Shown: one piece after another, positions 20,538 through 22,635 of the stretch
Layout: each line of letters starts with the position of its first letter
Position numbering within the stretch: the first letter of the stretch is position 1
Assembly: GCA_900317375.1 (NCBI GenBank)
Contig: ONGJ01000002.1
Coordinates: 78,841-142,840, forward strand
Direction of reading: 5' to 3'
From: an uncultured Eubacteriales bacterium
Lineage (GTDB): Bacteria > Bacillota > Clostridia > Oscillospirales > Oscillospiraceae
Length of the DNA: 64,000 nucleotides
The notes under the pieces: model-generated
Database searches by the model: none
Seen by the model: only the letters and a program-made list of their open reading frames with translations
What the model was told of the DNA's origin: nothing
Translations under genes and position numbers: made by a program

Positions 20538-21659
20538 ATGTTCTTTGAACGTGCAGATATCTTTCTCCTTGTCATGTGCCTGATCTGTTCTCTGTTTGGG
20601 ATCTATATGGTGCGCATCGCCACGATTGCCATGGAGGCCTCCGGCTGGGTCGACAGCTCGGTCAAATGCGTTATTGTTCAGGTCTTTTCCCTGTTTCTCG
20701 GTCTGGCCGCCTTTGTTGTGCTCACCTTCATCGATGCCGACCTGCTGGGCGAGCAGTGGAAGCTGCTCTGCGTCATCAACATTCTCCTTCTGGTCGCCCT
20801 GGTCATCTTCGGTCAGGACAGCGGCACCGGCAACAAGAGCTGGATTCGCTTTGCCGGCATCGGCGTTCAGCCCTCTGAGATCATCAAGGTCATCTACATC
20901 ATTGTCTCTGCCAAGCAGATGACCTGGCTGAAGGAATACCGCGACATCAACTCTGTCGTCTCTGTCGCGGAGATGGCCGGTCACTTTGTCATCATCTTCG
21001 GTCTGATCGTGGTTGTCTCCTCCGACCTCGGAAGCGCCGCCATCATCCTTTTGATCTTCCTCTCGATGTTTTTTGCCATCGGGGTCCGCATGTACTGGTT
21101 TGCCCTGGGCGGCGCCGCCGTTGCCGCGGCCATTCCCCTGCTCTGGACTTACTTTCTGAAGGACTATCAGAAGAAGCGCCTGATCGCGCCCTATGATCCT
21201 TCCATCGACCCGGACGGCTGGGGCATCACCTGGCAGACGACCCAGAGCAAGCTGACGCTGGCCTCGGGCAGGCTGACCGGGGTGGATGCGGAGCACCGAG
21301 CCACCGTTTTTACCGGAAAGCACACCGACTTTATCTTCTCCTGCGTGGGGGAAGAGTTCGGCATGATCGGCTGCATCATCGTCATCGTTCTGCTGCTGAT
21401 CATCATGGTGCACATTGTCCGCGTCGGTCTGAAGGCCGGCCGTACCTTTGATATGCTGATCTGCATCGGTGTCGGCTCTGCGGTTGCCTTCCAGACCTTT
21501 ATCAACATCGGCATGTGCATCGGCATTACCCCCGTCATCGGCATTACGCTCCCCTTTTTCAGCTATGGGGGCTCGTCGATGGTGACGATGTTTGCCGCCA
21601 TGGGCCTCGTCTCCGGTGTCAAATTCAAGCTCAAGCCTGAGCTTTTCTCCATCCACTGA
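20538..21659 (+). CDS. rodA: SEDS family peptidoglycan glycosyltransferase (RodA/FtsW/SpoVE)
   Basis: 373 aa with ~10 TM segments. Conserved IQPSEIIKV, TDFIFSCVGEEFG and PFFSYGGSSM. Confidence 0.92.
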   Translation: MFFERADIFLLVMCLICSLFGIYMVRIATIAMEASGWVDSSVKCVIVQVFSLFLGLAAFVVLTFIDADLLGEQWKLLCVINILLLVALVIFGQDSGTGNKSWIRFAGIGVQPSEIIKVIYIIVSAKQMTWLKEYRDINSVVSVAEMAGHFVIIFGLIVVVSSDLGSAAIILLIFLSMFFAIGVRMYWFALGGAAVAAAIPLLWTYFLKDYQKKRLIAPYDPSIDPDGWGITWQTTQSKLTLASGRLTGVDAEHRATVFTGKHTDFIFSCVGEEFGMIGCIIVIVLLLIIMVHIVRVGLKAGRTFDMLICIGVGSAVAFQTFINIGMCIGITPVIGITLPFFSYGGSSMVTMFAAMGLVSGVKFKLKPELFSIH

Positions 21660-21664
21660 TCATC

Positions 21665-21697
21665 ACAGCCGCCGGGAAACCGGCGGCTGTTCCTTTT
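21665..21697 (+). terminator. rodA intrinsic terminator
   Basis: ACAGCCGCCGG-GAAA-CCGGCGGCTGT (11-bp stem, GNRA loop) followed by TCCTTTT. Confidence 0.65.
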
Positions 21698-21702
21698 GGA
21701 AG

Positions 21703-21734
21703 ACAAAGAAAATACCCGCTTCGAATGAAGCGGG
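21703..21734 (-). terminator. intrinsic terminator oriented for the minus strand (3' end of the candidate sRNA)
   Basis: Minus strand CCCGCTTC-attc-GAAGCGGG followed by TATTTTCTTTG. The plus-strand side has no U tract. Confidence 0.6.
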
Positions 21735-21969
21735 AATATCAGTTGTACAATATGGTGCCATTGTACATTTGCATCAGATTCACGATGTCGCGATCATCGC
21801 GGTCTGTGCGAAGTCGGTTTTCAGTCCTCTGACAAAAGTGGGAATTGCTAGAGGACTGTTGCTGCCCGAACAGCATACCGGAATTTGGCCCCGGCGGCCT
21901 GCAAGTCAATTTACCTCGCAATTTCGGGTTAAGATGCCGACACATCAAGGGGTGACGCCCCTCATCGCA
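21705..21969 (-). ncRNA. candidate stand-alone structured sRNA (~265 nt), family not recognised
   Basis: Bounded by a near-consensus promoter (21976-22004) and a terminator (21703-21734) in a 520-nt gap between convergent/divergent genes. Internal stems: GGGG/CCCC (21949-61), a 9-bp stem 21822-30/21850-58 and an 8-bp stem 21744-51/21760-67. No SD-preceded ORF. Confidence 0.45.
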
Positions 21970-21975
21970 AGAGGT

Positions 21976-22004
21976 AATATAGCACATTATGTGAACCGTG
22001 TCAA
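21976..22004 (-). promoter_or_regulatory. near-consensus sigma-A promoter with extended -10
   Basis: Minus strand TTGACA (22004-21999), 17 nt spacer, TGc-TATATT (-10 at 21981-21976). Confidence 0.6.
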
Positions 22005-22182
22005 GCATTATTACTACATTTCACAATTTATTCATAATTGATTTATCTATTTTGCTGAAACCCGCCCTCGTCTGCCGTCTTTCACCGTCTTTTTCTCCGT
22101 CATATCACGGCTGAGGCCTCTTGACTTTTTCATCCCAAAAAGGCATAATGGCGCTGTTATCAAACAGGAAAGCTGGTTTGTC

Positions 22183-22635
22183 ATGAATGAAAAAGCCGAG
22201 CTCTGGCGCTCGCTGAAGTTTCTGTTCTTTTCCGTCTCGGCCGGGATCATCGAAATTGCCGCATTTGCGCTTTTGAATGAGACGCTCGGCTGGCCGTACT
22301 GGCCCTGCTATCTGATTGCCCTGGTTCTGTCGGTCCTCTGGAACTTTACGCTGAACCGCCGCTATACCTTCCGCTCGGCAAACAATGTCCCCGTGGCCAT
22401 GGCAAAGGTCTTTCTCTTCTATCTGATCTTCACCCCGGCCAGCACGCTGCTCGGCAACTGGCTGGCTGAAGGGCTTGGATGGAACGAGTACCTGGTTACG
22501 GGGATCAACATGGTGCTGAACTTTGTCCTGGAATTTCTCTATGACCGCTTCTTCGTGTTCGGAGACAGCCTGGACACCAACAGCCTCGCAAAAAAGGAAG
22601 CTGCCCAAAAGACGAAAAAAAAGACCGCTGGCTGA
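22183..22635 (+). CDS. GtrA family membrane protein
   Basis: 150 aa with 4 TM. KFLFFSVSAGIIEIAAFALL...WNFTLNRRYTF is typical of GtrA-like proteins. Confidence 0.85.
   Translation: MNEKAELWRSLKFLFFSVSAGIIEIAAFALLNETLGWPYWPCYLIALVLSVLWNFTLNRRYTFRSANNVPVAMAKVFLFYLIFTPASTLLGNWLAEGLGWNEYLVTGINMVLNFVLEFLYDRFFVFGDSLDTNSLAKKEAAQKTKKKTAG

Follow-up and report, generated by a model that had tools for sequence, protein, structure and literature searches.

A candidate family of pseudoknotted RNAs in Candidatus Limivicinus, related to RNAs that precede PBECR4-like nuclease genes

Type III toxin-antitoxin loci combine a strong promoter, tandem RNA repeats, a Rho-independent terminator, and the gene of an endoribonuclease toxin (PMC5086642). 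Their antitoxin RNAs are toxin-binding pseudoknots, and a toxin-less mimic of phage origin, pseudo-ToxI, neutralises ToxN (PMC5086642). In Clostridioides difficile phi027, the structured RNA RCd22 contains two motif copies and lies upstream of the gene encoding the toxic protein AbiF (Abi_2), which it neutralises by direct binding, acting in cis as well as in trans (PMC12373285). Free-standing structured RNAs have been described in Clostridia as well. The raiA motif RNA (ModT), a non-coding RNA (ncRNA) of about 200 nt, displays covarying helices, two pseudoknots, and many invariant nucleotides, while its biochemical function is unknown (PMC10861870). The locus described here lies in a 64,000-nt stretch of DNA (the window) from an uncultured bacterium of the Oscillospiraceae (contig ONGJ01000002.1), where the 523-bp gap between rodA and a GtrA-family gene carries the signals of an RNA gene on its minus strand. 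The window RNA appears to belong to a new RNA family with a well-supported, complex fold, and its relatives in other bacteria and phages suggest a function.

The promoter and the terminator that the original prediction had placed on the minus strand of this gap are both present. The sigma-70-type promoter agrees with the consensus at 11 of 12 positions, its placement is conserved in the family, and transcription would start at about 21971-21968. The intrinsic terminator consists of an 8-bp stem with six G-C pairs, a 4-nt loop, and a U-tract that exists on the minus strand only; it stands back to back with the plus-strand terminator of rodA (21665-21690). Across the family, the distance between the end of the -10 box and the RNA core is 2-7 nt in essentially all 73 aligned members, and an intrinsic terminator occurs 30-120 nt past the core in about 60 of 68. 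Promoter, core, and terminator keep the same spacing in more than 70 homologues, and it is mainly this recurrence that sets the signals of the window beyond chance. The A/T-rich element upstream of the promoter may serve as an UP-like element or be bound by a regulator. Every family member, among them a copy in Monoglobus that is linked to a putative toxin gene, has TTGTGAA/TTCACAA or TTTACAAAAAA elements upstream of its -35 box. In the subgroup of the window, the promoter spacer also contains the palindrome CACATAATGTG. Sequence comparison confirms the earlier observation of a separate RNA gene in the gap, first put at about 265 nt and here at about 267 nt; its transcription is inferred from these signals and their conservation.

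Sequence and structure are both conserved in relatives, with covariation. Two covariance models were built for the family, R1 from the 165-nt core and R2 as a second model. The window sequence covers both in full, with scores of 178.9 bits (R1) and 134.2 bits (R2), and is able to form all family helices. Five helices (P1, P2, P3, P5, and P6) and three pseudoknots (PK-a, PK-b, and the H-type pseudoknot S1/S2) are well supported by covariation (Table 1). In PK-a, which joins the P2 loop to a CCGAC strand preceded by a conserved A-rich tract (GAAAA), compensatory variants comprise GUCGG/CCGAC, AUCGG/CCGAU, ACCGG/CCGGU, and, in Monoglobus, ACUGA/UCAGU; variants at single pairs include A-U/G-C and U-A/C-G. 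PK-b varies in the same manner (CCCG/CGGG, CCUG/CAGG, CUCA/UGAG, and UCCG/CGGA, the last in Monoglobus), and S2 displays many compensatory variants. Pairs were counted over 72 distinct sequences aligned to R2, a model from which P2, PK-b, and S1 are absent. Standard pairs fill 94.3% of the cells, compared with 26-46% when the partners are slid by 1-3 columns, and changes on both sides occur in 29 of the 42 pairs. None of 500 shuffles reaches the observed pairing values; because related sequences are not independent, these shuffles overstate the significance, and the slid-partner controls and a set of 73 independent metagenome sequences, with 95.8% of cells paired, are the stronger arguments. 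Many unpaired positions are also invariant across the family.

The local stems noted at the outset have been conserved: 21949-61 corresponds to P1, 21822-30/21850-58 to P6, and 21744-51/21760-67 to P8. The two long-range pairings proposed along with them are rejected, because covariation puts their strands in other pairings. GATGTGTCG, thought to pair with CGACATC, instead forms P2, the loop of which pairs with AACCGAC (21817-21813), and TGCGAGG, thought to pair with CTTCGCA, forms P3 together with CTTGCA. For the predicted 268-nt transcript, the folding energy is -101 kcal/mol, with z = -4.99 relative to 200 dinucleotide shuffles.

No coding signal was detected in the RNA gene. A codon model trained on 495 long open reading frames (ORFs) of the window's own genome gives the 89-aa ORF at 21739-22008 a score of -8.1, compared with +130 for rodA. 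The short ORFs inside the RNA have no ribosome-binding site, and no reading frame is conserved across homologues. A protein-coding function is rejected on the basis of the negative codon scores and an indel in the P1 loop that disrupts the frame between homologues. It had been noted at the outset that the 89-aa ORF starts upstream of the -10 box and lacks a ribosome-binding site. Promoter, terminator, fold, and the lack of coding signal all point to an independent, structured, non-coding RNA gene, as first proposed.

Table 1. Features of the RNA locus in the window, with flanking genes, and coordinates of the class II RNA loci discussed in the text (core numbering starts at 21971)
Feature	Coordinates	Strand	Details
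rodA	20538-21659	+	PF01098, 2e-70
rodA's own terminator	21665-21700	+	convergent with the RNA gene; context, outside the RNA
Window RNA gene	21971-21703	-	~267 nt, promoter to intrinsic terminator
Intrinsic terminator	21734-21703	-	hairpin CCCGCTTC/GAAGCGGG 21734-21715, then TATTTTCTTTG to 21703
P8 hairpin	21744-21767	-	UGUACAAU/AUUGUACA; specific to the window's subgroup
P7 long hairpin	21771-21809	-	type A members only
Conserved RNA core	21971-21807	-	165 nt, core nt 1 = 21971
P1	21963-21947; core 9-14/20-25	-	covariation
P2	21946-21933; core 26-29/36-39	-	covariation
P3	21920-21900; core 52-57/67-72	-	covariation
H-type pseudoknot S1/S2	21899-21877; S1 core 73-76/82-85, S2 core 77-81/91-95	-	covariation
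P5	21874-21861; core 98-101/108-111	-	covariation
P6	21857-21823; core 115-122/142-149	-	covariation
PK-a	P2 loop GUCGG 21937-21941 with CCGAC 21813-21817; core 31-35/155-159	-	98.6% of cells paired
PK-b	CCCG of invariant UAACCCG 21925-21928 with P5 loop CGGG 21868-21865; core 44-47/104-107	-	97% of cells paired
Sigma-70-type promoter	22004-21976	-	TTGACA 22004-21999, 17-nt spacer, extended -10 TGcTATATT 21984-21976
A/T-rich upstream element	22020-22043	-	11-nt direct repeat; plus strand TTCACAATTGA x2.2, RNA strand AATTRTGAA
GtrA-family gene	22183-22635	+	PF04138
Class II loci (Limivicinus)	L284:1140-1480 (G178), L286:1100-1430 (G123), L287:1130-1480 (G107)		

Among the genomes searched, the family (hereafter the orphan family) is restricted to Candidatus Limivicinus, a group of uncultured Oscillospiraceae from the rumen and gut of cattle, sheep, goat, buffalo, yak, and deer. 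The window's genome has a single copy, and BLASTN recovered the locus in 16 other genomes of the same Genome Taxonomy Database (GTDB) genus. R1 extended this to 54 of 150 species genomes of Candidatus Limivicinus, with 1-3 copies per genome. A pattern scan matched 103 metagenome contigs, and the 80 of them that were retrieved yield 81 model matches and 73 distinct new sequences; none of the viral contigs scanned was matched. Neither R1 nor R2 found the RNA in 150 genomes from 30 families of the Oscillospirales, and it was not found in 148 genomes from 133 other genera of the family Oscillospiraceae, where the sole weak match falls inside a coding sequence; absence counts, here and below, are lower bounds, because most of the genomes searched are metagenome-assembled. 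The order rodA>, <RNA, gtrA>, <hexokinase is retained in the ten closest genomes, and the flanking hexokinase-family protein is 57-83% identical across about ten species with the rodA-RNA-gtrA arrangement. An attempted comparison with empty sites found that rodA and gtrA are not adjacent in RNA-negative relatives.

Two paralogous subtypes can be distinguished, and they may co-occur in one genome. Type A, to which the window copy belongs, has a long 3' tail made up of P7 (with a loop that is often AUCGCGA), P8, and the terminator, whereas type B passes from the core directly to its terminator; minimal members of 110 nt exist. In the window, the conserved 7-nt P7 loop AUCGCGA (21794-21788) holds the palindrome UCGCGA. 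About half of 49 distinct type A tails have such a loop palindrome (UCGCGA, GCGCGC, or CGCG) and the others have none, and kissing-loop dimerisation through P7 is at most a weak idea. At one locus (L029:1047-1662, G133:C57), type A and type B copies stand in tandem on the same strand, about 300 nt apart, each with its own promoter. In three other copies (L016:1452-1683, L081:2001-2242, and L082:2001-2223), P2 is separated from the UAACCCG junction by a structured, G+C-rich insertion of about 60-80 nt.

A class-level search with R2 led to relatives outside Limivicinus. Two genomes of Monoglobus, which belongs to a different order of Clostridia, matched at 52 bits. The P1-P2 domain of the Monoglobus RNA is near-identical to that of the orphan family, and both PK-a and PK-b are present with compensatory changes. 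This RNA consists of two tandem modules and is followed by a terminator and, about 35 nt later, by a gene for a 220-aa PBECR4 protein (PF18813, 2e-27). The name stands for phage-Barnase-EndoU-ColicinE5/D-RelE-like nuclease 4, and a full-text literature search for 'PBECR4' returned nothing relevant. Homologues of the protein are sporadic, being found in 5 of 399 Clostridia genomes sampled and in 5 of 168 Limivicinus genomes. With filters off, R2 gave same-strand matches directly upstream of PBECR4 at L278/L279, L281, L282, L283, and L285; four loci were thereby added to the Monoglobus matches, and of these L283 and L285 are in Limivicinus. The same architecture was recognised by eye at L280. 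Scores on these RNAs, termed class I, were 52, 25, 20, 19, and 17 bits, each at the correct place and strand. A pattern for class I, the doubled module GUUGG-NNRR-CAAC-RGAAAAA, recovered at least 120 loci in genomes, among them those of Lachnospiraceae, Oscillospiraceae, Dorea, Faecalicatena, Listeria, Enterococcus, Lactobacillus, and Dielma, as well as 18 viral contigs. Of the 126 loci for which the downstream sequence is long enough, 91 have a PBECR4-like gene that begins 59-144 nt past the RNA.

The tertiary pairings of class I correspond one-to-one to PK-a, PK-b, and S1/S2 of the orphan family. Three pairings covary strongly in 25 diverse class I RNAs: the P2 loop pairs with the 3' end (98.4% paired), the J1 junction with the last P5 hairpin's loop (100%), and the first P5 hairpin's loop with the linker that follows AGAAAAA (99%). 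A third covariance model, R3, built from class I RNAs only, in turn recovers orphan Limivicinus RNAs at their exact coordinates, with E-values, rough as they are for all three models, of 5e-6 to 0.009 (for example L014 at 29.5 bits and L031 at 26.4 bits, with four more at E<0.01). Models that match both ways and a shared architecture indicate that the orphan family is homologous to class I RNA. In the two-module class I RNAs (L272:1530-1660; L280, L281, L282, L283, and L285), the pseudoknots are interlocked: J1 reaches the second P5 hairpin loop, and the first P5 hairpin loop reaches the linker that opens module 2. The resulting fold is closed and pseudo-symmetric, in contrast to ToxI, whose repeats are independent. 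An unrelated structured RNA (class II, ...GCGUUGAAGCGGAUGAUGGGGUCAG...), to which R2 has no match, occupies the same slot between promoter and terminator before more divergent PBECR4-like genes at three Limivicinus loci (L284, L286, and L287).

Orphan and class I RNAs share a P1 hairpin with a CGNCAU loop, a P2 loop that pairs with a 3'-terminal AAAA-NCNGN strand, and a J1 junction (UAAAUCCG in class I, UAACCCG in the orphan family) that pairs with the loop of the last GUUG-N-NNNN-CAAC hairpin. An internal H-type pseudoknot, a promoter abutting the 5' end, and an intrinsic terminator after the RNA are likewise common to both. Class I differs by having two tandem modules of about 57 nt and a nuclease-like gene within 59-144 nt. 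The window RNA has one P5 module, a different S1/S2 sequence, the additional hairpins P3, P6, P7, and P8, and no toxin gene. It is also chromosomal and syntenic (rodA-RNA-gtrA), with no evident mobile element. Its only GUUG/CAAC-type hairpin is P5, and the first module of class I is represented only topologically, by S1/S2. No PBECR4-like gene lies 59-144 nt downstream of the window RNA, a position occupied by the convergent 3' end of rodA.

Class I loci have the same layout as type III systems (ToxI, CptI, and TenpI; AbiQ), including the tandem modules. They differ in that no similarity of sequence or model to those systems was found, that the neighbouring protein is PBECR4, of the BECR fold, rather than ToxN, CptN, or TenpN, and that the 57-nt units are interlocked, whereas type III repeats are independent and 34-45 nt long. 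The window RNA departs further from type III antitoxins in lacking both repeats and a toxin gene. The RCd22/AbiF system differs in RNA family and protein family, and RCd22 always stands beside its toxin. The raiA motif RNA resembles the orphan family in its varied gene contexts, covarying helices, and pseudoknots; raiA is single-copy and spans two phyla, whereas the orphan family has 1-3 copies per genome and occurs in one genus, plus its toxin-linked relatives.

Comparison with Rfam 15 yielded only chance-level matches, and neither the orphan nor the class I RNA has a family there. The search was run at gathering threshold on the window, 20 homologue loci, and 17 class I loci, and at E<=10 on the window region and one representative each of type A and type B. 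This agrees with the original prediction, which had seen no signatures of RNase P, transfer-messenger RNA (tmRNA), signal recognition particle (SRP) RNA, or 6S RNA at the locus. A divergent housekeeping RNA is rejected as an identity for the element: RNase P, tmRNA, SRP RNA, and a 6S candidate are all located elsewhere in the genome. The 6S family (RF00013), a long irregular hairpin that includes a central bubble, has no match at the window locus. The best 6S candidate of the genome (G000:C65:37651-37856, L144) scores 43.1 bits against a gathering threshold of 46.4, so automatic annotation would miss it. No raiA motif (RF03072; gathering threshold 101.3 bits) was found in the region at E<=10 or in the genome; the genus also gave no match, in a search without a positive control, so that absence there is not proven. 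Rfam's abiF motif matched neither the window nor any of the orphan and class I loci searched.

The gene neighbourhood, called with a codon-model gene caller, indicates that the RNA is not a cis leader, as had been proposed. In 39 of 64 loci the gene that follows downstream is convergent, as it is in the window, where the RNA runs towards the 3' end of rodA. Only about 7 of 73 loci have a well-supported co-directional gene no more than 110 nt from the terminator, and the genes concerned are unrelated. Neighbour genes vary, with recurrences only through local synteny, and no consistent co-directional gene or recurring gene family was found downstream in the tested loci. A 67-aa ORF (MDRREVIRNLERDLETLARLH...RRYFG) lies convergent and downstream of 33 type B copies (e.g., L069:1707-1907, L059, L067, L048, and L211). 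It has no Pfam match (best E 0.1) and adjoins a gene for a large glycoside-hydrolase-like protein, amylosucrase-like by eye. As a partner protein this ORF is rejected, since type A loci, the window's among them, lack it, and its recurrence is best explained by conserved synteny. Single cargo genes, by eye beta-carbonic-anhydrase-like, rhodanese-like, and others, are inserted between the type B terminator and this ORF at L048:~1380-1500, L091, L184, L183, L057, and L055. Their start codons lie about 27-60 nt past the terminator, which leaves no space for a promoter, so these genes probably rely on read-through from the RNA promoter.

On the explanation we favour, tentatively and as something short of probable, the window RNA is of antitoxin type, has lost its toxin partner, and works in trans on PBECR4-type RNases from mobile elements. 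A strong promoter would drive a free-standing gene to yield an RNA of about 267 nt that ends at its own intrinsic terminator and folds into a compact core, in which three pseudoknots lock five helices, with two 3' hairpins after it. The orphan family would be a toxin-less offshoot of the widespread class I RNA of Bacillota and phages, and may function as a trans-acting, protein-binding pseudoknot RNA. Such an RNA would bind and inhibit a PBECR4-type RNase encoded elsewhere, usually outside the genome, and toxins from phages, prophages, and other mobile elements would thereby be neutralised, as by an anti-addiction or immunity decoy. A trans-acting, protein-binding role appears most likely because the class I kin show the type III layout in front of PBECR4. 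By that analogy, class I RNAs themselves may have antitoxin activity, and the orphan RNA may bind a PBECR4-type protein and act as an antitoxin. Several observations speak against this proposal. PBECR4 (PF18813) was not found in the window's genome, which is 94.75% complete, and just 2 of the 54 RNA-positive genomes gave a match to it. Relative to class I, the orphan RNA is diverged, with a single P5 module, the extra elements P3, P6, and P7, and no sequence repeats; inside the window RNA there is no tandem repeat, and the two modules of about 57 nt are not found. When 2 kb were searched with R3, the top match coincided with the window RNA, yet its score was weak (8.9 bits, E 0.04). Moreover, conservation as 1-3 paralogues over many species would fit a toxin-independent role equally well.

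Such a role is the substance of an alternative in which the RNA has toxin-linked ancestry and now serves, independently of any toxin, as a scaffold or sensor for another protein or a small molecule, comparable to raiA/ModT, OLE, or 6S RNA. It is possible, if rather doubtful. The 52 of 54 RNA-positive genomes in which PBECR4 was not detected favour it, as do the coexistence in one genome of subtypes A and B, each with conserved extras of its own (P3, P6, and P7), the strong promoters with their UP-like element, the many invariant unpaired positions, and the maintenance of orthologous loci over considerable divergence. On the other hand, the gene neighbourhood indicates no partner or ligand, and the 5' domain (P1-P2-J1) is still near-identical to that of toxin-linked RNAs of distant taxa, which suggests that an ancestral binding surface has been retained. 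The locus could also be a decaying, non-functional remnant that was left behind when a toxin-antitoxin locus lost its toxin. Homology to toxin-linked RNAs and the missing toxin would agree with this. Decay is nonetheless highly improbable, given that promoter, terminator, and helices are kept with compensatory substitutions in more than 70 homologues and 73 further metagenome sequences, that paralogues are retained, and that the rodA-RNA-gtrA order persists in about ten species across which the flanking hexokinase-family protein is only 57-83% identical.

Two further explanations place the function in gene regulation. The RNA could be a cis attenuator, a riboswitch-like leader that gates read-through of the terminator, with window-type copies having lost their cargo gene. 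A terminator follows the core in about 60 of 68 members, the toxin-linked relatives are themselves leaders that carry a terminator, and at about 7 of 73 loci a co-directional gene (e.g., carbonic-anhydrase-like, rhodanese-like, or DJ-1-like) starts 27-110 nt past the terminator without space for its own promoter. This explanation is nevertheless unlikely, as 39 of 64 loci have a convergent gene next to them and the window terminator directly adjoins the 3' end of rodA, such downstream genes as occur are mutually unrelated, no alternative antiterminator pairing was seen, and R1 and R2 find nothing in other Oscillospirales. The RNA could instead be a base-pairing small RNA that contacts mRNA targets through a single-stranded loop, such as the C/U-rich P6 loop GCAAUUCCCACUUUUG. 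C-rich loops act as seeds in Firmicute small RNAs (RoxS/RsaE, for example), several type A members have P6 loops of the CCACU type, and the gene is free-standing, with promoter and terminator. We give this very little credence: the subtypes do not share a conserved P6 loop, the 110-nt minimal members lack it, and three covarying pseudoknots with invariant junctions typify RNAs that bind proteins or ligands rather than seed-driven ones.

If the orphan RNA is indeed an antitoxin-type RNA acting in trans, a broader scenario can be outlined, which is speculative and which we consider doubtful. A rumen genus may have domesticated a chromosomal, toxin-less, type III-like antitoxin RNA as a constitutive antidote that disarms PBECR4-type RNases delivered by phages, prophages, and conjugative elements, a form of RNA-only immunity or anti-addiction. 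By extension, PBECR4 and class I RNA might constitute a fourth, undescribed type III or abortive-infection family, built from interlocked double-pseudoknot units.

For the annotation of these genomes, the RNA gene fills a 523-bp gap that had seemed 'empty', and the family does the same for about 150 others like it. With three covarying pseudoknots packed into about 165 nt, this intricate RNA class joins the few bacterial ncRNAs of unknown function, and its compact, interlocked pseudoknot fold makes it an attractive target for structure determination. Unlike most orphan RNAs, it comes with a concrete lead, through relatives that occur in the context of RNase-like genes. These class I relatives look like a new family of RNA antitoxins and RNase toxins across gut and rumen Firmicutes and their phages, and the orphan copies raise the question of whether stand-alone antitoxin RNAs may be kept as a guard against incoming toxins.

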